Translations under genes and position numbers: made by a program
Assembly (NCBI GenBank): GCA_041739995.1
Contig: JBGSMV010000029.1
Coordinates: 1-64,000, forward strand
DNA length: 64,000 bases
Origin: Bdellovibrionota bacterium
GTDB lineage: Bacteria > Bdellovibrionota_C > UBA2361 > JBGSMV01
Direction of reading: 5' to 3'
The notes under the pieces: model-generated
What the model saw: only the letters and a program-made list of their open reading frames with translations
Database searches by the model: none
Told to the model about the DNA's origin: nothing
Shown here: piece after piece, positions 44,990 to 62,779 of the stretch
Layout: each line of letters begins with the position of its first letter
How positions within the stretch are numbered: position 1 is the stretch's first letter

Positions 44990-45784
44990 TTAGCTTGATG
45001 CTGACTCGTACTTCTGGAGTCCTCGGTGCCATAGAAATCGAATCGCCACGGTGATTAGTGCAAGCGCCAAGAGCGAATAAAGCACGCCAAGAAATTTATG
45101 TTGGTCGAACAGAAAGTGCACCGGCGCGGAGCTGGCGAGAAGGACGGGCAGAACGAAAGTAAAAACGCGTCGAAATGTTGCTTGATACACAAAGTCCGGC
45201 CAGCGGCTAATGTCTTGAAGCTGCATCCGCAGAAAGTTCATCCCAATACTGTCCACAAGCCAAAAGCCACTGATCATCAATAGAATCTCAATGGCGGTAA
45301 TCAACGCGAGTGCAAGCAGGACCATGAAGGGCAGGGCAATCCAAGCGATCGTCGAGAGGCCAATGTTACCGCCAAAGTGTGCCATGAGGAGCCACGGGAC
45401 TGGCGCGAGAACGAAGGAGCCTGCTCGGATGAATCTAAAAAAGGTAATAAATATCGCGTTTGCAGGTCTCAAAAGTATGAAGTCGAGCGTTCCAGTGCGA
45501 ATATCAGCAGAAAAATTCCAAAAGGACTCGCTTACAAAGGTCATGTGAAGCTGGTCTACCGCCAGCATGAAACAGGCAAAAAACAAGAAGTGCTCGCGCG
45601 ACCAGCCACCCAACGGTCCGGTAAGGCGAAAGGTGAAGTCGATGGTAAACAAAATCGAGCAGTAGAAGCAGATATCCATCAGAATGAGCAGTAGGAAGTG
45701 TACGCGAAAGGCCAGAGCACGTTCGATGTTCAAGCCGAGAAGGTGCCAGTAAATGTCGAGGTAATGTCGGAGAAAGCGTCTCAT
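44990..45784 (-). CDS. ABC-2 family (DUF990-like) permease
   Basis: IRTGTLDFILLRP and TFVLP motifs; ends YESASS. Confidence 0.88.
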   Translation of the reverse strand: MRRFLRHYLDIYWHLLGLNIERALAFRVHFLLLILMDICFYCSILFTIDFTFRLTGPLGGWSREHFLFFACFMLAVDQLHMTFVSESFWNFSADIRTGTLDFILLRPANAIFITFFRFIRAGSFVLAPVPWLLMAHFGGNIGLSTIAWIALPFMVLLALALITAIEILLMISGFWLVDSIGMNFLRMQLQDISRWPDFVYQATFRRVFTFVLPVLLASSAPVHFLFDQHKFLGVLYSLLALALITVAIRFLWHRGLQKYESASS

Positions 45785-45785
45785 G

Positions 45786-46589
45786 CTACATGCCCGCCGC
45801 AGCATAGAGACGTAGCCCCTTAGACCAGAGCACTCTCGCGGTGATGGCGGCGATAAGCAGCCAAAGTACAGTCATTAATGCGGCATCATGAAATGTAACC
45901 GAACTGCTGCCCATGCAGAGCTGTACGGGAATGAAAGTGAGATAGGGGAAAGGTGTATACCAAAGAAATTCCAAAACCTTTGGCGGGAAAAGATCAAGTG
46001 GAATTATGGCTCCGGACAAGAAACGAGCAACCATCGTGAACAAAACTCTTAACACCCAGGATTCTTCAATCCAAAATGACGAGCTCGAGAGTAAAAACCA
46101 GACGCAGAACCAGAGCAGGCTCACCAATAGAGCCATGCTGCCCCCTGCGGCGAGGTGAGTCAGGGATTCGAGGGGGAGGATTCCCGAACCGAAACCAATC
46201 ACCAGTACGATTAAGGCGCTCAGACAGTTTAGAATTTGAGCGGCGCTAAAAGCCCCAAAGTGGTAGCCCATGAAACTAGTTGGATACAGCAAGAATGCCG
46301 AGATTCTACCAAAGCGAATATCCTCGGAGATATTGCGGCTCGCATACGATTGACACAGCAGTGTGACGACCAGCACGTAGGTCTGGTACTCAAGCATTCT
46401 TTCAAAGGTGTACCCCCGCAATAACTCATTGTCGCGAGCTGCAAAAATCGAGTACCAAAGGTTAATCTTAATCAAAAAGAAGACCAGGGCGGGCCCAAGA
46501 ATAAGAAGAAGGAAGTTGAGTTTGTATGCGAGCTGAGAGGCGAGCTCTATGCGAATCGTGCCCCAATACTTTGAAAAAAGCTTCTTCAT
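45786..46589 (-). CDS. ABC-2 family (DUF990-like) permease
   Basis: ISEDIRFGRIS.FLLYP and LSGAIIPLDLFP motifs; ends GLRLYAAAG. Confidence 0.88.
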   Translation of the reverse strand: MKKLFSKYWGTIRIELASQLAYKLNFLLLILGPALVFFLIKINLWYSIFAARDNELLRGYTFERMLEYQTYVLVVTLLCQSYASRNISEDIRFGRISAFLLYPTSFMGYHFGAFSAAQILNCLSALIVLVIGFGSGILPLESLTHLAAGGSMALLVSLLWFCVWFLLSSSSFWIEESWVLRVLFTMVARFLSGAIIPLDLFPPKVLEFLWYTPFPYLTFIPVQLCMGSSSVTFHDAALMTVLWLLIAAITARVLWSKGLRLYAAAGM

Positions 46590-47581
46590 GCGGAAGGGGA
46601 CAAAAGTTGAGGGTTTGAAAGAATCGAATGCATCACTCGCTCCACCGGAATTTGCTCGGTGCCAAAGTCAGTGACGGGGTAGCGTTCAAGGATTTGTTGC
46701 ATAGTGCTCCTCAGCGCGTTTTCAGGGATGCGGAGTTCAACGTGGGTGCGTTCAGGGTCCCAATCTGGCTCAAACGGCACGAAGAAAGTGTCTTCAACTG
46801 AGATAGCTGAGGCGAAGGAGACAGAAAGAAATTTTTCGGAACCGAGAAGTCTTTGAAATTTTGAGAGTTCACCATCGAAGCGTTTCTCTCCTCCGAGAAT
46901 AAGCACCACTCGGTCGCATAGCGCTTCGACATCTGCCATATAGTGGGAAGTGAGTATGATGGTGGTGCCTCGCTCTTTGTGGAAGTTGAGCAGAAACTGC
47001 CTAATTGAAACCTGGGCCACCACGTCGAGGCCAATGGTAGGTTCATCGAGAAATACTACTTTGGGATCATGGAGCAGTGAAGCCATGAGCTCCACTTTCA
47101 TGCGCTCACCCAGAGATAGCTTGCGCACGTGAGTTCTCAGTACGTGATTAACGCCAAGAAGCGTCCCAAGTTCATCCACGCGTTGGTTGAAATTCTGGCG
47201 AGAGATCTCGTAATAGGCACGTAAGAGCTCCAGCGAATCGAGGGCGGGGATGTCCCACCACAGCTGAGACTTTTGCCCCATGACGAGAGCAATCCGTCGG
47301 CGGAATTCCTTAGCACGCGCGAAGGGGTCGCACCCAAGTACTTGCAGGCGTCCATCGCTTGGCATGATAAGGCCGCTCAGCATCTTCATTAGCGTGGTTT
47401 TGCCGGCGCCATTTGGACCAAGAAGACCGAGGAGCTCTCCTTCACGAACAGAAAATGAAAAATCTCGCACGGCAGATATTTCGTTATACTCGCGTGAAGC
47501 AAAGCTCTTGAGAGAGCCAAGGATTCCAGGATCCTTTTTGTATATCTTGAATCGTTTAGTGAGAGCTTCGCAGTGAATCAT
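46586..47581 (-). CDS. ABC transporter ATP-binding protein
   Basis: GPNGAGKT, VMGQKSQLWWD, LSLGERMK, FLDEPTIGLD, TSHYMAD; probable start MIHCE at 47581. Confidence 0.93.
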   Translation of the reverse strand: MIHCEALTKRFKIYKKDPGILGSLKSFASREYNEISAVRDFSFSVREGELLGLLGPNGAGKTTLMKMLSGLIMPSDGRLQVLGCDPFARAKEFRRRIALVMGQKSQLWWDIPALDSLELLRAYYEISRQNFNQRVDELGTLLGVNHVLRTHVRKLSLGERMKVELMASLLHDPKVVFLDEPTIGLDVVAQVSIRQFLLNFHKERGTTIILTSHYMADVEALCDRVVLILGGEKRFDGELSKFQRLLGSEKFLSVSFASAISVEDTFFVPFEPDWDPERTHVELRIPENALRSTMQQILERYPVTDFGTEQIPVERVMHSILSNPQLLSPSA

Positions 47582-47759
47582 AGGGCGTTGAAACGTGTGG
47601 TTATTACGTCGCAGTCTACTTAAATCATTATTTATCGACAGGGCTACTCTTCGTGGAAATCGAGAGGCTCGATATGGACTACTCAGGCTTGGTCTGGCGC
47701 GACCTCGAGCTCGCCTTACTTCGATAATTCTCAAGTATTTGGGATTTCAAGTTTTAGCC

Positions 47760-47990
47760 TTCTGGCGCTACAATCCCCTCTCAAAGCCACTTGAGAGGGA
47801 GGATGCCAAAGCCAGGCGCTCCTATGGAGCGCTTCCTCTTGTCAGCGCCTTGCTTCGACTTTTCTTGTGAGTTTTTTGGCTCATGAGGGACGAAAGAGGG
47901 TCCGTCGAAGTCAGACGTCTAACCGGCCCGTTGATTGGGCAACATTTCTCTTTGGCATCCTTCGTCTTCGGTTTGCCTCGGCGCCCTGGA
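47760..47990 (+). ncRNA. candidate structured ncRNA upstream of the RT
   Basis: 12-bp perfect inverted repeat 47800-47811/47950-47961; hairpins 47776-47799 and 47814-47834; stem cttcgac/gtcgaag 47853-47910 enclosing two further hairpins. Confidence 0.45.
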
Positions 47991-49306
47991 CTAAAACTCA
48001 ATCGCGGATTTTTCAAGAGCTTTTTCATAGAGAGATGGAGATGTCCCCGAATTTTCCGGACTGGAGATTAGTTCGTCGCACCTTAGATCACGAATGGTCC
48101 GGTAAGCGACTTCGACTCCGGGAGCAAGATTCTGAGGGGATGACTCGGCAGGAATTTTTTCGCTTTCGACACCGCTTATTAGAAGGTTCGATACGGCAGA
48201 TTCGGACCAAGACGTTTGAGCCCGCAGTGGCAAGGCCTTTCACTATCTTCGTCGATAAGCCCCGAGTTGTTTTCCGTTTTCGATGGATTGACCACTTCTG
48301 GATGGACTACCTTGGATTCTTGCTTCGTGACAAGGCCGAGGAGATCTTGAGTGACGCGGTAGTGAGCTTTCGCACGGGGCGAGGAGTGCATACCGCCTTT
48401 GAGCGCCTTCGTCCGCTCTTTGCGGATCCATCACGCGGTGATTTATTTGTATTGCGACGAGATGTTCAGAACTATGGCCCCTCTATGGACCACCGTAGAA
48501 TGCAAAACATATTTCGCTCTATAGTTCCGTCAGCTCCCTTGCTTGAGCACTTGTTCTCGAAATTCTGCTCTTTCCAGTATTTAGAGGGAGAGCAGTGTGT
48601 GGTGAATGCTTCTGGTCTGCCAGCCGGGAGCCAGCTTCAAACCGCTTTTGACAATTTGTACCTGCATGAGTTGGATCACCAACTCGATAAAATGGACGAT
48701 GCGGTATACGTTAGATTTGGGGACGACATACTTTTCGCAACCACCTCACTGCAGAGAGCGCTTGACGCTAAGCGCCGCATCTCAGAATTCTTTTTAGCCG
48801 CACAGCTCGTGCCAAACGAAAAGAAGTGCCAAGATTTTGTCATCACGCGCACCGTAAAAAAATCTACCAGCCAGAAAGAATTCACGCCGGCACAAATATT
48901 CCCCTATCTCGGCATGCTGATCGATATGCGAGGAGATGCGTACCTTCCAAGACAGAAGATGAAAAAAATTACTACCTTTCTTAAGGCGCAGCTAAAAATG
49001 GCCTTGGGGCCCTCAGCGGGTAGCGGAGATAAGAATGTTGGTTTTGAAGCCATTCAGGTAGTCAAACATGTTCTCGGAGGCGGCCTGCTCAGTGGGGAAA
49101 ATCCATTGCTTCATTATCTGCCGTTGATGAGAAATGAAAAACAGCTTCGTGCGCTTGATCGATGGATCGCAACGGCAGTTATCTCAGCAGTGCATGGAGG
49201 AGGATTTAAGAAGTCATTCTTTCGGTCAACCTCGTTCTCTGAACTAAGAGAAATGGGGCTTCCGTCTCTTGTCCACATGCGCCGAGTCGGGAATCGTCAG
49301 CGATGA
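47867..49306 (+). CDS. stand-alone group-II-like reverse transcriptase with atypical active site (probable start ATG 48035/48041)
   Basis: RT0-7 in order: QDSEGMT, SDAVVSFRTGRGVHTA, RRDVQNYGPSMDH, GLPAGSQLQTAFDNLYLHELD, YVRFGDDILF, LVPNEKK, FPYLG; X/thumb-like LRALDRWI...LREMGLPSL. Confidence 0.9.
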   Translation: MSFLAHEGRKRVRRSQTSNRPVDWATFLFGILRLRFASAPWTKTQSRIFQELFHREMEMSPNFPDWRLVRRTLDHEWSGKRLRLREQDSEGMTRQEFFRFRHRLLEGSIRQIRTKTFEPAVARPFTIFVDKPRVVFRFRWIDHFWMDYLGFLLRDKAEEILSDAVVSFRTGRGVHTAFERLRPLFADPSRGDLFVLRRDVQNYGPSMDHRRMQNIFRSIVPSAPLLEHLFSKFCSFQYLEGEQCVVNASGLPAGSQLQTAFDNLYLHELDHQLDKMDDAVYVRFGDDILFATTSLQRALDAKRRISEFFLAAQLVPNEKKCQDFVITRTVKKSTSQKEFTPAQIFPYLGMLIDMRGDAYLPRQKMKKITTFLKAQLKMALGPSAGSGDKNVGFEAIQVVKHVLGGGLLSGENPLLHYLPLMRNEKQLRALDRWIATAVISAVHGGGFKKSFFRSTSFSELREMGLPSLVHMRRVGNRQR

Positions 49307-51534
49307 GCCTTTTTCAACCGCGAAGTTCTCGATTCCAACGTTTTGATAGAGAAACCGCGGAAATTTTAAGCGATCCTCACCCCCGAGCACCTCTGCAAGT
49401 GCTTATTAGGTTGGTGTGTTCTCAGCGCAACTATATTTTTTGGCACGTGACGTTCTTGGCGCTGCACTTTGCTGAGCTATTGGTACTCGCACTCATTCAT
49501 CGCATTTACTTTCCCCCAGAATCGCTGCTGCTATTGAGGGTCTGCTCCACGGTTTCGCTTATCGCGGTTATTGCTTCCTGTAGTGCGAGACTATCACAGT
49601 CGTTTAGTGACAGTGATGCGGAGAGAGGGGGTGGCCCGGACGCATGGCGCGTGGCGCGACTCCTCTTTCAGAGCACATTGTTGTTAATGCTCGCCCTTGC
49701 AGTTTGCGTATACCTTTCGCGTGACGCTAATTTTGCAAGTCCGCCAATTTTCCGGGCCTTGGTATTTTCTATCTTCATCACACTGCCCTTTGATTGCATG
49801 CTTAACTTCATTTTTCTCAATCAGAGGGCATTCTCAAGGCTGATTCATCGCCGTCATCTGAGAACAATCACCCTACTTGGCGACCTAGTTTCTTTGTGGT
49901 GCGTGTATACTGACCAGCCAGTGTTGTGCCTACTGTCGCGCACGCTGCCTCGTCTCTGGGCGGCCCTAGCGGTTTGGAAAGATGTGACGGGGTTCACTGT
50001 ATCTCGCCTATTTGAAGCACGCCTATTTGCCGACGCATCGGAGCGAAAGTCGGCAGTTTATCTGATTCAAACCTCTGGCCCAGCGGTGGCGTGCGCCGGG
50101 CTGATGGAGGTGTCTCTATACTGGAGCCTCTGGTTGTTGAACCGTGGGGTGGAGGGGGCGGCGCTCTTGATATTCTGTAGTCACAAGATCGTGCATCTGG
50201 GGCATCTGGTGTCGTTGAGACTCGGGATGCGACAGAGCGCGATGTTTGATGCCGCTGATGTGAGAGTGGGTACGCAAATGGGATTAGCGTTTTTACGGCG
50301 CTGGGGACTCGTGATGCTCGCGAGCATCTTGGTGGCCATTCTCTTCAGTCCCATGTTGTTGCTGCAGAAGGAGGTGGTGTTGTGGAGTTCTCACCTAGGC
50401 GAGTCCTTCGGATGGTCTCTTGCGGTGGGGCTATCCGTGCTTGCACTGACGGGAGCGCGTATTTGCACGCACGGATTAGTCACCATGGCAGCTTTGAGGC
50501 TAAGGCGTTGGCGAGAGTGCCTTCCGGTCATCATATGGATGTTGTTTGTGGGTTCCGTCTTGAGTTGGCTCACGCGCAGCGTGCTCGTTCACGAGGAGAT
50601 GGAACAAACGCTGATCTCACTTTCAAGCGCTGAGGCTTTGCTCAACCTTGGATTCCTGTGGTGTGTGGCCTGGCTGCTCATGCGAGAGCTTCGCCTGTCA
50701 CACGCGGCTCTTAAGAGAGGTGCTTCGATTAGGTTCTTAGAGGAGTTTGAGCGCGACCTCACGAAACCTTCCGACTCCGTTTGTCTTGTGTATGTAAAGA
50801 CCAGCGGAAAACTACAGAAGCCACTACTGGAAGTCGTCACTCCAGCGGAAAAGGACGGCCTTAAGCCTTTTGCGTGCTTCTCCATTATCGGCAACCAGTC
50901 ACTAATGCTTCTTCGTGCGTCCCGACCTTTGGGTAAGGTAAGGATAAGGCAGTCACTTGCTCGCTGCCTCGCGGGTGGTATTGAAGAGTTGCGGATTTTG
51001 AAATCCGAAGTAGCCGACTACCACGAGTTATTCCCCTTTGGGGTAAGTTCTGAATCGGTCACACGCTGGCTGGTCGATCTTTTGCGTCAGGGCAAACCTG
51101 AGCCTACTCTGTCGGAGGAAGAACGTGAGCGCCTAGATTTCATTTGCGAGACCGCCTTTGGCACTTCGAGGGCTACAGAGGCGGCTATGGTGCCCGGATT
51201 TGTGGTCGCAAGTGCCGCTGAAAAATGGGACCTGTCACACATATCAGAGCGAGATTTACGCAAGCAAATCGTGCGATATGGCAAGCGCCTGATTGAACGT
51301 GATCTGGTATGGAATCCAATCCCGCTATGGAAAGGTGAATTTAGGGGATTTGTTCACCTCGTTCGTAATGGAGAGGTGGTAAGGATCCTTTGGTTTGACG
51401 CCAGCCTAAGAAGTCTCAAGCCGCACATCGAAAACGCGGCCCTCGTGAGAAGTTTCGTGGAGCTCTTCTCGGCGTTTGGAGCGGCAGAACGAATGCAGCA
51501 GAACCCGCCGGAACTATCTGAGGAGTTGAGATGA
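49303..51534 (+). CDS. polytopic membrane protein (~12 TM, MOP/flippase-like topology) with C-terminal soluble domain
   Basis: About 12 hydrophobic segments in two halves over ~460 aa, then ~280 aa soluble; ATGA overlaps at both ends. The family is inferred from topology only. Confidence 0.7.
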   Translation: MSLFQPRSSRFQRFDRETAEILSDPHPRAPLQVLIRLVCSQRNYIFWHVTFLALHFAELLVLALIHRIYFPPESLLLLRVCSTVSLIAVIASCSARLSQSFSDSDAERGGGPDAWRVARLLFQSTLLLMLALAVCVYLSRDANFASPPIFRALVFSIFITLPFDCMLNFIFLNQRAFSRLIHRRHLRTITLLGDLVSLWCVYTDQPVLCLLSRTLPRLWAALAVWKDVTGFTVSRLFEARLFADASERKSAVYLIQTSGPAVACAGLMEVSLYWSLWLLNRGVEGAALLIFCSHKIVHLGHLVSLRLGMRQSAMFDAADVRVGTQMGLAFLRRWGLVMLASILVAILFSPMLLLQKEVVLWSSHLGESFGWSLAVGLSVLALTGARICTHGLVTMAALRLRRWRECLPVIIWMLFVGSVLSWLTRSVLVHEEMEQTLISLSSAEALLNLGFLWCVAWLLMRELRLSHAALKRGASIRFLEEFERDLTKPSDSVCLVYVKTSGKLQKPLLEVVTPAEKDGLKPFACFSIIGNQSLMLLRASRPLGKVRIRQSLARCLAGGIEELRILKSEVADYHELFPFGVSSESVTRWLVDLLRQGKPEPTLSEEERERLDFICETAFGTSRATEAAMVPGFVVASAAEKWDLSHISERDLRKQIVRYGKRLIERDLVWNPIPLWKGEFRGFVHLVRNGEVVRILWFDASLRSLKPHIENAALVRSFVELFSAFGAAERMQQNPPELSEELR

Positions 51535-53681
51535 AGAGTCCCCCAAGTTGGATAATCTTGAGGGTGATAGCTCGGTGCCAAACGGCGCTGAGTAGGATCT
51601 TCGTGCCATTTCTGCTCGCGCTTTTGTTGCTCATTACAAGTGCGCTCGTTTTTGAAGGGCCGCTTCGTCGCCAATTTCCCCATAGGGCAGCGCGAATGAG
51701 CTGGGAAATTGACGGCATGAGTATTGAGATTTTCCGCTCGCGGGAATCCCGTTATTTTCCAGAAATGCGGTACTCACCGATGCATATCACCGTTCCATTT
51801 TCTCAGACTCCGCGTGGATGTGAGTTCGTGTATGGGGCCGTGGTGTATAGATATCACCAGCAAAGCGATCGTCTGATCGAACAACCCAGGTATCTTACCA
51901 AGTTTCGATATAATCTCGAGCGTGGGCGCTGTGAGTCGAAAGATCTCTTCATTATTGATGGAGAGACTCCTTTCGACATGGATGTTCAACTTGTTGATGT
52001 CGAGCTTTCAGGCGAAGAAATAATCGAGATGCCTAGGCCTGAAGGATTACGGATTATAGCCTTGAGTCCAGAAGAAGTTCGGGTAGCTAAACAGGTTATT
52101 CCAGCGCAAGAACCTTTTCGACGACCACAATTCACCAAGCGAATTTCGAAATTTTCTGCCAATCTCGACGCAGGTGAGGCCGAGATGCTTGTGGCGCCTT
52201 ACGATCAGGTTAAGCCTCTGATCTTGTCGGAGATTCGGGCGCTGATCGAACGTTGCAAGAGCAGCGGGCAAAGCAACGCGCAGTGTTCTTCTGCCCCGGG
52301 TTCGTCCATCCGCGGCGCAATTGCCGAGATTCTTGATCCGGATATCTCAGATGCAATGGAGGACGCACGTGCTGCAGGCATAGACGTTGATGTGCTCACC
52401 AACTACCGCGCACAAGCAGAGACGTCGCAGCTTGTGACGCTCGATCACGGCAAACTACGTGGCGTCACCGCTAGGTTCGATGGGCCGAGCCCTTGGATGT
52501 GGCTGCGTTTGAACCCGCATTCATTAGTGCTCAAGCTGCCAATGCATACAAAGTTTATTATCATCGGCGACTCCTTCGTATTAAGCACGAATGCCAATTT
52601 CAACTTCATGTTCACCGAAAGTAGTCGCGAAGTAACGATGGTGTATCGAAGCCCGACAGTGGTGCAGATGTTTGACGACTTGCTCGCGCAGATCCGTACT
52701 TCAGTGTATCGCCCGCTTGATGTCGATCTTCGAGATAACTTTCTTCTGCTATTCAATGCGGATCGGCCAAGGGGCTACTCAGTGACGGATCAAAAGTCTT
52801 ACGTCCCGATTAATACTAATGAAGGTGTCAGATCGAGTGCGTACGGCATTTTGCTCGAGCTTCTCGCGCGGTCAACGGGTGAGGTTGTGCTCGCCATGTC
52901 CCCCATCTCTGACGCTTGTGATACCTATCGTCGTCGGCACTGTTTGTTCGACATTCTTTCGCGGCGTGCAGGTATTGGTATGTTCCGCCTATTCATGAAT
53001 GGCTACTTCTATTTTAGCGAGGAGGTGGGAGGCCTTGATGAGTGGCGCTATGCGGCGCGTCGGTATCAAGAAGAGTTTCAGAATCGGTTTCGTGCCGTCA
53101 GGAAGATTTTTTCTGAAACTAGTGAGGATGGTCTCTCGATTTTTATGCAAAAGGGCAATTCCTACAGCCTCCATCACGAGCGCTTAGGTCTCGTGGGGGA
53201 TGATTGGGTCCTGGCAGGGTCCGCGAACCTTGGCCAAAAGGGGACACTGAATGTGATGGAACTATTGAGAAGCCCTGTCCTCATGGAGAAGGTAAAGAGC
53301 GAGGTAGCGACGTTTGATGAGCCATACTTTGTTTCCCATGCCCATGAGTGGACTCCGGAGGAGAAAGAATATCGAAATTGTGAGTTCACCTTTGAGCGCG
53401 AGCTGCTTCATTGGAGAGAGTATAAACTTAAACGCTTTCAGCGTAGCGAGGTCATTTCAGAATTGAAACGTAAGTACGGAGTCGAAGCACCCGGGACATT
53501 ATTTCTGGTGTCTCCGGCCTTTGATCCGAGGCCGGATGATGGAGTTCGCTATTTCAAGGATGTGGGAGAAAAGGTCGTCGAACTAGAGGAAGTTTTTACA
53601 AGCCTTTCAAGTTATCTCTGCATCCAGGACAGTGCGGGGCAAAGCTATGTCGTCAATGTTCAAGCGTCTGCTGGAGACTAG
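51531..53681 (+). CDS. membrane-anchored phospholipase D-superfamily protein with variant HKD motifs
   Basis: N-terminal TM; PLD-type ILDPDISDAMEDARAAGIDVDVL; HTKFIIIGD...TNANF; HERLGLVGD...GSANL. Confidence 0.8.
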   Translation: MKSPPSWIILRVIARCQTALSRIFVPFLLALLLLITSALVFEGPLRRQFPHRAARMSWEIDGMSIEIFRSRESRYFPEMRYSPMHITVPFSQTPRGCEFVYGAVVYRYHQQSDRLIEQPRYLTKFRYNLERGRCESKDLFIIDGETPFDMDVQLVDVELSGEEIIEMPRPEGLRIIALSPEEVRVAKQVIPAQEPFRRPQFTKRISKFSANLDAGEAEMLVAPYDQVKPLILSEIRALIERCKSSGQSNAQCSSAPGSSIRGAIAEILDPDISDAMEDARAAGIDVDVLTNYRAQAETSQLVTLDHGKLRGVTARFDGPSPWMWLRLNPHSLVLKLPMHTKFIIIGDSFVLSTNANFNFMFTESSREVTMVYRSPTVVQMFDDLLAQIRTSVYRPLDVDLRDNFLLLFNADRPRGYSVTDQKSYVPINTNEGVRSSAYGILLELLARSTGEVVLAMSPISDACDTYRRRHCLFDILSRRAGIGMFRLFMNGYFYFSEEVGGLDEWRYAARRYQEEFQNRFRAVRKIFSETSEDGLSIFMQKGNSYSLHHERLGLVGDDWVLAGSANLGQKGTLNVMELLRSPVLMEKVKSEVATFDEPYFVSHAHEWTPEEKEYRNCEFTFERELLHWREYKLKRFQRSEVISELKRKYGVEAPGTLFLVSPAFDPRPDDGVRYFKDVGEKVVELEEVFTSLSSYLCIQDSAGQSYVVNVQASAGD

Positions 53682-53820
53682 TGTCCTGAGTTAAGAGTTC
53701 GATGAATAATTCTCGCCGAGCTCGCTGCTCTCTTTGTGAACATATTTAATGAATTGTACAATGAGTTCAGCGAGCACAGCGAGAAAAATACTTAAATGAA
53801 CTTCTGACTCAGCACACTAG
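53678..53820. mobile_element. MITE-like palindromic repeat, copy 2 (most intact)
   Basis: CTAG at both ends, 23-bp terminal inverted repeats matching 19/23, and internal palindromes; supplies the TAG stop of the PLD gene. Confidence 0.85.
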
Positions 53821-53868
53821 TCGCGCCCGATTCTCTGACAACTTAGCTTTGCACCCAAGAGGTGAGGA

Positions 53869-54261
53869 CTAGGGACAGGTCGGAGGCACTGAGTTCGGTA
53901 CGCAGGAACAGAGTCCAGAGCTTGAACTTCTACGAGTGCAGATCAGATCCTCTGCGCCGGTGCTGGATTTACAATAAATCTGTGTCGTGGTTGTGGGATA
54001 GCAAGTGTAGCCAGCCGGATATGGTGCGCAGTCGGTAAAGCGAGCGCAGCTGCACATTCCGTAGCTCCCAGGAAGACATCTCAGTGGCGAGAGCGGATCA
54101 ATCGGAGGGGATACGTCGCGACAGACGATTACTTGGGTGCCCTGGTAAGTTGTGGTTTGGAAGCCCGAAGGGCAAGCGCAGGCAGCCGAGGCTTCAGCGA
54201 CAAACGCCGCGGCGCTGCACACCATAAGTGCTATGCAATAGAGTAAGGCCCTTACCATCAT
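53869..54261 (-). CDS. small secreted cysteine-rich protein
   Basis: Signal peptide ending AEASA; 15 Cys; two internal repeats ending G[ML]CSC. Confidence 0.7.
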   Translation of the reverse strand: MMVRALLYCIALMVCSAAAFVAEASAACACPSGFQTTTYQGTQVIVCRDVSPPIDPLSPLRCLPGSYGMCSCARFTDCAPYPAGYTCYPTTTTQIYCKSSTGAEDLICTRRSSSSGLCSCVPNSVPPTCP

Positions 54262-54579
54262 GTCCGTCTAATCCCTAACAAGAGAGTCGGGCCAAGAAGC
54301 TAAAAACTTAAAGGGAATTTTACCTCATGAGTTCAAGTTGGTAGCCTGGAAGCAGCTGTCCGCTGAGCCATTGAGAGCCGCTAATCTTTTGGGTTCTGGC
54401 GTCAGCCAAGGGGGGGCTAGCCCATATTGCCATTTGAGCGAAGGCTCTTGCGCGTTTGCAGTGAGCTTGGACGCACTTAGTTCTAATCCCTCTGAAGAGT
54501 CTTTTAACGAGCAGATGAGATCTTTGTTGCTCGATTTGAGGCTGGTCTGCTAGGACCTTACTTAGGAAACGTACCAATT

Positions 54580-59728: not shown

Positions 59729-62700
59729 ATGATAGGTCCCTCAGAATCAGCGGCATCAGATGCCACGGATGGCTTGCTATCCTCCCAGGCTGCCGAATCC
59801 AAAGAGTTCTCTAAGTTCCCTGGGGAAGGTTCTCGGGTAACTGAAAGCGGCACTAGTGACGCATTGGACGCTCTTATAGCCCCTTCAAAGGGCGCGCTCG
59901 AAGCTCCGGCGTTACCTGGGAAAGTGCCTTTGGGGAAGGTCGCAGAGCACCTAGAGAAATTTATCAAAGAGGCACTTAAGGACTCTGACCATCAACCGCT
60001 GGGGGTGCTTGATGAATCCCTCAAGGAGCTTTCTAAGTTGCTCGGCTCAAGCGGAGAAGACGATGATATTCCCACAAAAGGTCTGAAAATTTCATATCGA
60101 CTGGGGCACCTATCTGAACTTAGTTCGGTCGACCGCCGGCGTTCAGTCAAAGCTCTGTGGGCCTGCGCGCTGAGTGGAAGTCGCCTGTCGCCGGAAATGC
60201 GAGCCGTGCTGTCCCGAATGCAGAATGTACTCGCACCTGACGAGAAAGAATCGCTGGCGAAGTGGCTCTATAACGTATCTAAGGGCGATGCTGAAGGAGA
60301 AAATGGAATCACTGCGGTGATTGGAGAAAGTGGACGTTTGCAAGCACGGAAGTTGTTGGAGATTGTATTGGAAGGGTGCAAAACGCTTACCGAATTACGA
60401 GCGGTAGTAGATGGAGTTGGAAAGCGAAATCTGATCGCGTTACGCGAACGTCCAATATCCGAGTTTGTGGCCGTTCGAGTTCTTGGATCTCGGATGCGCG
60501 AATGGCGCAAGTTCTCGATCACAGCTCCGATGCAAGCTCGTTCTATAAAGCGAGGAGGCTTTCTCAAAGAAAAAGCTCCGGCGCCAGTGGCGCAGCGCAG
60601 ACTCAAAAGTATTGCTGAAGAGCTCGATCTGAGAAGAAAAGCTCTTTCTGAGAACGGTCGCTTTGCGCGCTCTCAAGCCTACAAGAGCTACATGGCGATT
60701 CTAGACAAGAATGAACAGTACCTACGCAGTGAGCGTAGAAGGTGCAAAAGCACTAAAGACCGAGTTGCGCTAGCAAATTTACTTACGGCCACGATGGCGG
60801 TGGAGTTCAAGTATAATTTGAGACTTACTGTGGAGCGTGATGGAGCCGGCAAGCCTAAGTGTCGATGGACGGAAAGTTGGGTGCGCGACGTTGGGGCAGC
60901 TCTGGGCGGTCTTCCCGAGATGTTGATAATCGCTACACCGAAGCTCAGACAAGTGCGCCTAATCGAGGCATTCAAGGATGGTTCCTATGGGCAACGAAAG
61001 AGTAATGGTCTCGTAGAGCTTTCTTCCGACGCGGTGGGTGCGGAGTCACGCGATAAAATGGCGGGGCATGTGAGATTTGCGCGTTCCCTCATCACTCATG
61101 AAGTCGGTCACAGCATTTTTTATGGGAAGGCCGGCTGGGGGGGTGCGAAGTCAAAGGAGAATGTTGAAGAGCTCGGTCGTAAGAGCTCGCCGAAATTTGA
61201 TTTTCGAGGATTTCTTGAAATAGCAGGATGGAACGTGATCTCGCCGGACCGTTGGAAGCTCGATCAATCGCAAGAGTTGGTCACGGTGGATGGAGAACCT
61301 CAGCGCCTTATGAGACCTGTGCGCCTAAAGGGATCTAGTAGCGACGTGATTTTGTCTTATCAAGGTGAAGATCGCACTCTATATAGCTTTTCCAAACCTG
61401 AGGGGCTTCCGTCCAGTAGTTATGGTGCCGCGGATCCCTTTGAGGACCTTGCCGAAGGCTTTGTTGAATACCGCTATGCTCCGCATCGACTGATAAAAAT
61501 TGCGCCATGGAAATTTCTGTGGTTTGAAGGCGAATTGGGGCTCTACGAAGTCTCCTCAGGGAAAGACTCTAGTGTGCGAGAGGCTCTCTCAGTGAAACTT
61601 CCCGGTCTTTTCCCGCCCCGTCGGGATTTAGCGACGAAGCCGCTTGCCGAGCTTACCTTAGATCGTGTTTCCACTAGTGCCTCGGAGATCCAGTCTCTGG
61701 TTTTGCCCCGTCGAGATATCAAGGCTCTGCCAGTATCCGAAGCCCAGGTCGGGCATTTTTGCTGGAAGGTTTTTAGGGAGGGAGGCGAGATTGAGGCAAG
61801 ACTCACGTCGCCGATGGCTCCTCCTAGTTCGCGTGAAGGCAGCAGTGAAATCATAACGGTTCCAAACCTGCGCCTATCGGAAACCCAGACCATGACCCTG
61901 CTGTTGCTTGGTTTGCGCGGAGCCTCCCAGACTATCCCAGGAGATCCCATCCCCGAACATTCGAGAGTGTTGAACCTTTTGAATTGGGTAGAGGCGCGTA
62001 AAATTCCGTGGAGCTCCCCGTTAGCGGCGAACAAAGTTGAGCTCTCCGCCCATTTGCTAGAGATTATCGGAGATTCCGAGGGACGAGCGTTTTGGGATAG
62101 GCATCTTCGAAGCACTGAAGTGCTGCCGGGTATTATTTCTGTCCGTTGCGCGAATAGTGAGTTGCTTGCATCTGCCTTCTGTAGATTGCAAGAGCACTAT
62201 GAGGGGCCACATTTTCACGGAAAGGTATTCTCCTTAGACGAGTATAAGCAGTGGTATCGCAAGGAGGCCAAGGCCGGGGTCTTTTCCTACTATGAGGATT
62301 GGGGTGGTTTTAACGTACCCCGAGCAGCAGTACTGAGCTTTTTAGACGGGGAGTTCCCGAATCTTCGAGTAAGGGAAGAGAGTCTGTTGGCGAGGGCGAC
62401 GCAGAACAAAGATGCTTCTTACCTTATCGGTGTTCCGGAGGGTCAGGAGGAGCAGGAAACCTTCAATCACGAGCTAAGCCATGCGCTGTGGGCGACCAAT
62501 GAATCTTATCGCGAAGAAGCTGGTCGAATTGTTAAGGCTCTACCTTTGGAGAGTTTCCGTAGGTGGTTGATTGAGAGTGGATATTGCGATCAGGTGTTGG
62601 ATGACGAGTGCGCGGCCCACCTAGTGGATGAGGCGTCGCCGTTCTCGCACTTAACATCTGCTAGATGCGCTAATGTTTCGGCCAAAGATCGAAAGAGGGT

Positions 62701-62779
62701 GCGAGAAGGTCATCTGGAGATCGAGCAACTATTCTCGCGGTATTCTACGGGAGCCTGGGAGCGGCACGCTTCGATTTGA
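59729..62779 (+). CDS. large orphan protein with two HExxH zincin-like motifs
   Basis: ITHEVGHS with downstream YGAADPFEDLAEGF; a second motif FNHELSHA with downstream DE; S-rich N-terminus. Confidence 0.65.
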   Translation: MIGPSESAASDATDGLLSSQAAESKEFSKFPGEGSRVTESGTSDALDALIAPSKGALEAPALPGKVPLGKVAEHLEKFIKEALKDSDHQPLGVLDESLKELSKLLGSSGEDDDIPTKGLKISYRLGHLSELSSVDRRRSVKALWACALSGSRLSPEMRAVLSRMQNVLAPDEKESLAKWLYNVSKGDAEGENGITAVIGESGRLQARKLLEIVLEGCKTLTELRAVVDGVGKRNLIALRERPISEFVAVRVLGSRMREWRKFSITAPMQARSIKRGGFLKEKAPAPVAQRRLKSIAEELDLRRKALSENGRFARSQAYKSYMAILDKNEQYLRSERRRCKSTKDRVALANLLTATMAVEFKYNLRLTVERDGAGKPKCRWTESWVRDVGAALGGLPEMLIIATPKLRQVRLIEAFKDGSYGQRKSNGLVELSSDAVGAESRDKMAGHVRFARSLITHEVGHSIFYGKAGWGGAKSKENVEELGRKSSPKFDFRGFLEIAGWNVISPDRWKLDQSQELVTVDGEPQRLMRPVRLKGSSSDVILSYQGEDRTLYSFSKPEGLPSSSYGAADPFEDLAEGFVEYRYAPHRLIKIAPWKFLWFEGELGLYEVSSGKDSSVREALSVKLPGLFPPRRDLATKPLAELTLDRVSTSASEIQSLVLPRRDIKALPVSEAQVGHFCWKVFREGGEIEARLTSPMAPPSSREGSSEIITVPNLRLSETQTMTLLLLGLRGASQTIPGDPIPEHSRVLNLLNWVEARKIPWSSPLAANKVELSAHLLEIIGDSEGRAFWDRHLRSTEVLPGIISVRCANSELLASAFCRLQEHYEGPHFHGKVFSLDEYKQWYRKEAKAGVFSYYEDWGGFNVPRAAVLSFLDGEFPNLRVREESLLARATQNKDASYLIGVPEGQEEQETFNHELSHALWATNESYREEAGRIVKALPLESFRRWLIESGYCDQVLDDECAAHLVDEASPFSHLTSARCANVSAKDRKRVREGHLEIEQLFSRYSTGAWERHASI

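Follow-up and report, generated by a model that had tools for sequence, protein, structure and literature searches.

A bacterial reverse transcriptase from a family with mostly small residues in place of the aromatic sugar gate, encoded in one operon with an upstream structured RNA and genes for a membrane protein and a PLD-like protein

What does a reverse transcriptase (RT) make when the residue that is held to keep ribonucleotides out of its active site is missing? The aromatic sugar gate is the textbook reason why RTs make DNA and not RNA. In PMC8363836 it is treated as universal, being described as conserved in all RTs, as excluding ribonucleoside triphosphates (rNTPs), and as missing from RNA-dependent RNA polymerases (RdRPs). 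The question is raised by an RT gene on contig JBGSMV010000029.1 of a Bdellovibrionota bacterium (GenBank assembly GCA_041739995.1), of which the first 64,000 nucleotides, called the window hereafter, were analysed. The RT encoded there has no aromatic residue at the sugar-gate position five residues after the motif A Asp (Gly146 instead) and no Gln in motif B (GLPAG), where the xQG motif of other RTs binds the incoming deoxyribonucleoside triphosphate (dNTP). It belongs to a large and widespread bacterial clade in which the gate is mostly replaced by small residues, while the catalytic residues and a conserved operon are retained.

The RT gene (48035..49306, + strand) encodes 423 amino acids (aa) when read from the ATG at 48035 and 421 aa when read from the ATG at 48041. 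Since the database form of the protein (P0002) has 421 aa, one of these two codons is taken as the true start. The open frame that carries the gene is intact and extends from 47867 to 49306 (+). Homologues do not align with its first 56 codons. Pfam RVT_1 is matched with an E value of 1e-8 and 35.6 bits, which passes the cut-off of 29.6, and the AlphaFold2 model of the protein has a mean predicted local distance difference test (pLDDT) score of 93.6. Translation of positions 48461-48727 (+) reads DVQNYGPSMDH...SGLPAGSQ...VRFGDD and thereby places the three motifs singled out in the initial annotation exactly where they had been located. Motif A (DVQNYG, 48461..48478, +) contains the catalytic Asp141, Tyr145 at +4, and Gly146 at +5; motif B (GLPAG, 48614..48628, +) has Ala195 where PQG has Gln; and motif C (FGDD, 48716..48727, +) has Gly227 where YADD has Ala, followed by the catalytic Asp228 and Asp229. 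The three catalytic Asp residues are thus all present, as had been noted, and D141, D228, and D229 are invariant together with G196, R225, and G291 in an alignment of 82 sequences with 22-46% identity to the window RT. Arg75 of the fingers and Asn205 of motif B' are nearly invariant. Judged from its sequence, the catalytic core is intact, and the enzyme is predicted to be active.

The assignment of Gly146 to the gate depends on the register of motif A. In HMMER alignments with group II intron RTs, DVQNYGPSMDH lies on DLEKFFDTVNH without a gap, and the profile of the 82 sequences (RrDvksYgdsidH) is aligned on DMDLEKFFDRVNH of the GsI-IIC RT, whose chain numbers in motif A are D138, F142, and F143. 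Because this alignment is ungapped, Tyr145 corresponds to F142 (+4) and Gly146 to F143 (+5), and the proposal that a Gly stands at the steric-gate position is borne out at the level of alignment. The alignments to solved RTs are free of indels from the catalytic Asp to the His that is conserved at +10, i.e., the register is unshifted. The solved relatives for which alignments were printed are all canonical, namely FF/GTPQG/RYADD in the GsI-IIC RT, FF/GIPQG/RYADD in DRT9, and FF/GLPQG/RFADD in a Cas6-RT-Cas1 protein. The weight of the gate itself is illustrated by the RT of Moloney murine leukaemia virus, in which F155 is equated with the gate and the F155V variant shows raised NTP incorporation (PMC8857657).

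How the three altered positions may relate to each other is suggested by the G2L4 RT described in PMC12337344. There, the x residue of YxDD fits into a pocket made of two Phe residues of RT3 and the Pro of xQG. The residues of this pocket are hydrophobic and stack on the sugar of the incoming dCTP, and both Phe residues (F149/F150) belong to it. By analogy with this complex, the three altered positions of the window RT appear to be parts of a single pocket that surrounds the incoming nucleotide at its sugar.

The same changes recur throughout the family. A word-indexed homologue search returned 22 proteins at E values up to 0.001, and an exhaustive search of representatives returned 1594 hits at the same threshold, 366 clusters at 1e-10, and 44 at 1e-30, with the best 150 being listed. 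From 166 family sequences, 156 were aligned for the residue tallies after removal of the 10 shorter than 330 aa. The set does not contain P0022 and P0023, which are group II intron and retron hits. At +4, an aromatic residue is kept almost throughout (Y 110, F 45, C 1). The +5 residue is non-aromatic in 130 of the 156 homologues (G 91, T 15, A 10, D 7, S 5, V 1, L 1), being G, A, S, T, or D in 128 of these 130, and aromatic in the other 26 (F 20, Y 6). Gln does not occur at the motif B position in any of the 156 sequences (T 85, F 22, A 10, S 10, M 9, G 5, others 15), so that PxG without Gln is general across the family, members with an aromatic gate included. The x residue of motif C is G in 115 sequences, A in 21, S in 15, C in 4, and V in 1. 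In the operon clade to which the window RT itself belongs, each of the seven RTs reads [YF]G / LP[ATMG]G / [FYL]GDD.

The small residue at +5, the loss of Gln, and xGDD are hence clade-wide traits and not specific to one lineage, as the alignment proposed in the initial annotation has shown. Its suggestion that the active site had been remodelled rather than left to decay also agrees with these tallies: the residue classes are kept over 156 homologues from many phyla and the catalytic carboxylates are intact, and we therefore consider the active site to have been remodelled under selection in a large clade. Three loci from metagenome-assembled genomes of Coxiellaceae (L020, L024, and L042), which fall outside the set of 156, retain the Gln of GLPQG and combine it with Thr at the gate and FGDD. 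This combination is intermediate and would be useful for dissecting the three positions.

A different picture is obtained for the statement that the three changes were concerted. The most frequent triplets of gate, motif B, and motif C residues are (G,T,G) in 59 sequences, (F,F,A) in 15, and (G,A,G) in 10, with further ones being rarer, and the pattern mostly reflects one deep split between a [YF][FY]/PFG/YADD clade and all others. On a FastTree tree of the 156 rows, built with the trait columns removed, the aromatic gate changed 4 times, motif C Ala 2 times, motif B F/Q 1 time, gate Gly 19 times, and motif C Gly 9 times. For the three positions, co-evolution received no significant support from independent-pairs tests on this tree, in which the aromatic gate offered 4 usable pairs and Gly versus Gly gave a median p of 0.25, and the claim of co-evolution was dropped. 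What stands of the concerted change is that the positions share one structural pocket in the G2L4 RT and changed at the level of clades.

The RT gene is preceded by a candidate non-coding RNA (ncRNA) in the 5' non-coding region 47735..48034 (+), with a conserved structured core at 47854-47921. This stretch of about 300 nucleotides, which separates the RT gene from a divergent ABC-transporter gene, folds over 306 nucleotides with -117.6 kcal/mol (z -4.64), and 0 of 100 shuffled sequences folded as well. Over seven loci of the clade, the consensus core consists of a long stem that encloses two hairpins, one of them variable and the other with a loop rich in purines. In the window (+ strand), the core stem pairs ~47853-47866 with ~47904-47918, and the enclosed hairpin is formed by GGGAC (47887-47891), the purine-rich loop GAAAGAGG (47892-47899), and GTCC (47900-47903). 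The fraction of paired cells over the seven loci was 87.8% compared to 71.6% in shuffled alignments (0 of 500 reached the observed value) and 33-47% in slid controls, and 16 of 22 pairs have changed on both sides, which constitutes covariation; this comparison was made without a close outgroup, as the 45%-identical relatives P0003 and P0004 are not among the loci. The N-termini of homologous RTs stop short of the upstream RNA stretch. Rfam has no match in 47000-54500 at E values up to 1. A covariance model built from the trimmed alignment found only its seven training loci among 88 sources. Over 124 genomes it again found training loci alone, under stricter filters that missed the window's own copy. 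Because the model finds its training loci alone and no independent further instance, the RNA is regarded as specific to the clade.

Downstream, the RT gene is coupled to two further genes. The first (49303..51534, +) encodes a polytopic membrane protein of 743 aa, whose start codon overlaps the RT stop codon (ATGA). The second (51531..53681, +) encodes a 716 aa protein of the PLD superfamily with an N-terminal hydrophobic anchor, and its start codon overlaps the stop codon of the membrane gene in the same way (ATGA). The same membrane gene follows the RT gene at the loci L001, L002, L003/L170, L169, L171, and L172, and the order RT-membrane-PLD is found at all of these except L002, which ends within the membrane gene. 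The loci L173 and L174 have the same order with more distant proteins, the third of which is again a PLDc_2 protein. The four-part operon, from the structured ncRNA through to the gene of the PLD-like protein, is conserved. Genome G003, from the same family as the window genome, has two complete ncRNA-RT-membrane-PLD operons (on C8 and C74), whose RTs are 35% and 34% identical to the window RT.

The 743 aa protein is helical and membrane-embedded over its N-terminal ~440 aa and apparently soluble over its C-terminal ~290 aa, and hydropathy analysis yields 6-11 segments across its family. It matches no Pfam or PADLOC family, and a homologue search with it returned only itself. An Atlas feature search gave 0.76 to MurJ/Polysacc_synt clusters. 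An alignment of seven rows yielded only a poor AlphaFold2 model (pLDDT 58.5), and nearly all Foldseek matches of this model are MATE/MurJ proteins (best E value 7.4e-4), so a MOP/MATE/MurJ-like fold is a weak lead. The 716 aa protein is recognized by Pfam PLDc_2 in two stretches (1.1e-12). Since all PLD-like relatives have an N-terminal anchor or signal-like segment, this enzyme may face the periplasm. Both of its HKD-like motifs look atypical. The first has H-x-K followed by five instead of four residues before the Asp, and the second has Arg for Lys (HHERLGLVGD...GSAN), where L171 and L172 read HxR(x4)D.

Downstream partners were scored at 156 of 165 RT loci, the other 9 being truncated or misaligned. 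Of 90 RTs with a non-aromatic gate, 55 are followed by a polytopic protein of 400 aa or more, while 15 have no downstream ORF (open reading frame) or lie at a contig end. Of 66 RTs with an aromatic gate, 2 are followed by such a polytopic protein and 35 by a small soluble one. These counts are a description and not a test, because the loci are kin and include distant RTs. At 53 loci (within L009-L160), gate-less RTs are followed by polytopic proteins of ~600-740 aa with 6-11 hydrophobic segments and no Pfam family. These genes also show start/stop overlaps, occur in Polyangiales, Coxiellaceae, Acidobacteriota, Bdellovibrionota, and others, and usually form a two-gene unit without a PLD gene. 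Homology of this partner family to that of the window membrane protein found no support, as an iterated hidden Markov model search gave no link and hhalign a probability of 4%. In the sister RT clade with [YF][FY]/P[FA]...G/YADD (24 loci: L004-L008, L081-L106, and others), the RT is regularly followed by a soluble protein of 130-220 aa without a Pfam family, and the pair makes up another two-gene RT system, distinct from the one just described.

Which nucleotides, then, would an RT with this pocket use? As the polymerase of its operon, the RT may copy part of its own ncRNA into a product that acts on the membrane effector, as in class 2 UG/DRT systems. Its sugar pocket would be opened by Gly146 in place of the aromatic gate, Gly227 in place of the Ala of YADD, and Ala195 in place of the Gln of PQG. 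With the ring that would clash with the 2'-OH gone, sugar selectivity may be relaxed, making rNTPs acceptable, and the further enlargement of the pocket by Ala to Gly in motif C and the loss of Gln were counted toward relaxed sugar selection. Inside cells, rNTPs are far more abundant than dNTPs. Copying of a template would then yield RNA or a mixed polymer instead of pure DNA, and as an unpaired incoming nucleotide would be held weakly, synthesis would depend on the template. That the window encodes a gate-less RT of a four-part operon with relaxed sugar selectivity, able to use rNTPs, is proposed tentatively, its chances being not far short of even. Altered substrate use, for which the initial annotation named modified nucleotides beside rNTPs, is plausible and can be sharply tested, and the use of rNTPs as such constitutes a good hypothesis. 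The broader proposal, in which the family comprises RT-derived cellular polymerases with switched sugar specificity that copy their own ncRNA with rNTPs into RNA or a mixed polymer, which in turn gates or reaches a MOP/MATE-like membrane protein and the PLD-like enzyme, appears unlikely.

Several points weigh against relaxed sugar selectivity. The three changes lack demonstrated co-evolution, as they trace back to only 4, 2, and 1 changes on the tree and mostly to one split. RdRPs have a second Asp in motif A, which we take to stand at D+5, where the window RT has Gly. Among non-RT structures in the PDB, the family profile first meets picornavirus 3D polymerases, with matches that span motifs B to C, stay below the threshold (E 0.07, 15 bits), and are a lead, not evidence. 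The sister RT-membrane-PLD systems carry YF (L173), YT (L174), and YY (L175) as the gate pair, all with PTG and GDD, and since L173 and L175 are aromatic at +5 where L174 has Thr, this type of operon must tolerate either state. The GDD of motif C, described in the initial annotation as typical of viral RdRPs, is not diagnostic, because a type VI-A RT-Cas1 with FGDD is reported to be active as an RT on poly(rA)/oligo(dT) (bioRxiv 10.1101/2024.03.12.584598). The aromatic residue at +4, which all but one of the 156 homologues have, contributes to the sugar pocket of the G2L4 RT and might partly replace the gate. Lastly, when F143 of the GsI-IIC RT is changed to Ala, primer extension with dNTPs continues at about half the normal rate (PMC8363836), and a gate-less RT can therefore stay a DNA polymerase.

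Several of these observations also count toward the chief alternative, an ordinary dNTP-specific RT in which Tyr145, possibly aided by the flexible Gly, stacks on the sugar while the small residues tune affinity, fidelity, or speed. The near-constancy of the +4 aromatic, the alternation at +5 between close sisters, and the functional FGDD of RT-Cas1 all fit this explanation. A version with a high Km has a possible example in DRT9, whose synthesis reportedly responds to a surge in the nucleotide pool. Furthermore, both Phe residues of the FF pair shape the sugar pocket of the G2L4 RT (PMC12337344), F143A in the GsI-IIC RT is described as chiefly weakening dNTP binding while templated DNA synthesis is kept, and the nearest characterized relatives, DRT9, DRT10, and DRT2, all make DNA according to PMC12632851 (for DRT10) and the titles of the solved DRT9 and DRT2 entries. 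On the other hand, the +4 aromatic is ancestral and also occurs in canonical FF RTs and in family members with an aromatic gate, and for that reason it is not a new compensation. The unshifted register up to the His at +10 likewise speaks against this alternative. In addition, the replacements at +5 are small in all but two cases and are accompanied by Ala to Gly in motif C, which looks like selection for space and not like neutral drift. An ordinary dNTP-specific RT is a real possibility, somewhat less likely than relaxed sugar selectivity.

The initial annotation had also raised template-independent synthesis. Under this explanation, the enzyme would be a template-independent or purely protein-primed nucleotidyl transferase resembling AbiK or DRT7 and making untemplated polymers, as some UG/Abi RTs do (bioRxiv 10.64898/2026.02.16.706125). 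The F143A variant, however, loses non-templated addition ~40-fold while primer extension drops only ~2-fold (PMC8363836), and template independence is disfavoured because the mutation hits the former far more than the latter. DRT7, moreover, retains a Tyr gate, as its preprint assigns the gate role to a Tyr. The fold of the window RT is nearest to the template-using DRT9 and GsI-IIC RT and not to AbiK, and a conserved structured ncRNA lies directly upstream. Taken with these points, an untemplated transferase is very improbable. A decaying or catalytically dead RT-like protein with a structural role, which the change of three canonical active-site residues could suggest, is hardly credible given the invariant catalytic Asp residues, the intact frame coupled to downstream genes, and the residue classes kept across phyla.

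With relaxed sugar selectivity as the tentatively preferred reading, the system can be compared to those already described. In Foldseek, the top matches of the RT model are DRT9 (9vma, 1.2e-18, TM scores of 0.69/0.59) and the GsI-IIC RT (6ar1, 6e-17, TM score of 0.70). The family profile searched against solved structures finds the GsI-IIC RT best (1.5e-37), together with DRT9 (9ioa, 1.5e-33). Among the PADLOC models, RT_UG26 scores best on the window RT (4.9e-26, 89 bits in two stretches, best over 68-257 of 398), while the Drt9 model matches partially (3.3e-20, 70 bits) and UG17 more weakly (1.7e-12).

DRT9 (UG28) is the best structural match, and its profile match spans the fingers, the palm, and the C-terminal helical domain, including a shared QL..LD.WI. 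Like the window RT, it is a class 2-type single-domain RT with a structured ncRNA just upstream. The two differ in the active site, which reads FF/GIPQG/RYADD in DRT9, a synthesizer of poly-dA, and YG/GLPAG/RFGDD in the window, and in the partners, since DRT9 usually stands alone and rarely with a SLATT protein (7/124), whereas the window RT is coupled to the 743 aa polytopic protein and the PLD-like protein. The UG28 ncRNA is highly conserved, while the window RNA has a different, clade-specific structure and no Rfam match (the coverage of the UG28 RNA in Rfam being unchecked). DRT10 (UG17) shares the layout of an ncRNA, an RT, and a co-evolving membrane protein, and its repetitive complementary DNA has been proposed to control a membrane effector (PMC12632851). 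The structured ncRNA adjoining the window RT, with its folding energy and its covariation, is a likeness to DRT10-type systems. However, DRT10 has YVDD (PMC12632851), and its partner is a small SLATT protein, in contrast to the large partner without Pfam or PADLOC family and the additional PLD-like enzyme of the window.

UG26 would be suggested by the best-scoring PADLOC model, to which relatives match over nearly the full length (P0054, 144 bits), unlike the window RT, which reaches 76.9 bits over 68-257 of 398 in the genome scan. The RT_UG26 model (PDLC03764) is unspecific at this level, as multicopy group II-like RTs, which account for 9 matches in G010, reach 128 bits and thus outscore the window RT, and it also rings in the Escherichia coli and Bacteroides thetaiotaomicron controls. 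A best hit to RT_UG26 under ~150 bits should not be read as membership. In addition, UG26 is reported with a YcjD/Vsr-like endonuclease partner (9/35), and none was found among the ORFs scanned in 38030-63922. Because the model is unspecific at these scores and the endonuclease partner is missing, the window RT was not filed under UG26. Group II intron RTs, represented by GsI-IIC (6AR1), give the best profile match and share the order and spacing of motifs, including D-x9-H in motif A. They differ by F143, PQG, and YADD, and the window gene stands without intron RNA, maturase, or endonuclease context.

Picornavirus RdRPs carry PSG in motif B and YGDD in motif C, which is near the P[TS]G and [YF]GDD of the family. 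Picornavirus-like RdRPs thus resemble the window RT in the GDD of motif C and also in having no aromatic sugar gate (PMC8363836), but the fold and all significant matches of the window RT are to RTs, and no RdRP occurs among the 50 Foldseek ranks listed. Overall, the layout of the operon resembles class 2 UG/DRT systems (DRT9, DRT10), and by this comparison it seems to fit no described group.

The active-site signature is unusual and so far undescribed: no published description of the RT family or of this signature was found in the literature searched, the supplementary tables of PMC9226505, which may list UG26 members, not being covered. A relaxed or inverted selectivity, if confirmed, would mean that RNA or mixed polymers are written by a naturally occurring RT, which would bear on the relation between RTs and RdRPs, on the signals of defence-type RT systems, and on enzyme engineering. 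If the enzyme is instead a strict DNA polymerase, the canonical gate would prove dispensable for telling sugars apart in RTs, an informative outcome as well. Should the family as a whole have switched its specificity, it would represent a new type of nucleic-acid-signalled membrane system with a bacterial RNA-templated RNA polymerase, and its nucleotide pocket, with P[TS]G, [YF]GDD, and no aromatic gate, would show the RT-to-RdRP transition in a living form.

The window RT is a single chromosomal copy with housekeeping flanks. Its neighbours include an ABC-2 transporter, M16 peptidases, fpg, and rplM/rpsI, and the region is not a defence island. Homologues at E values up to 1e-25 are patchily distributed, being found in 6 of 41 related genomes with the window's own included. 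The one same-genus genome searched (93% complete) had none at that threshold, and the plasmid and phage collections contained no relatives at E values up to 1e-10. Downstream of rplM/rpsI and a DUF5698 gene lies an ORF of 1016 aa (59729-62779) that matches no Pfam family at E values up to 1e-4. On the other side, divergent from the RT locus, the ABC-2 operon (44990-47734, - strand) encodes an ATPase and two ABC2_membrane_6 permeases, and the ATPase ORF has a long N-terminal extension, with the ABC domain starting from about residue 90.

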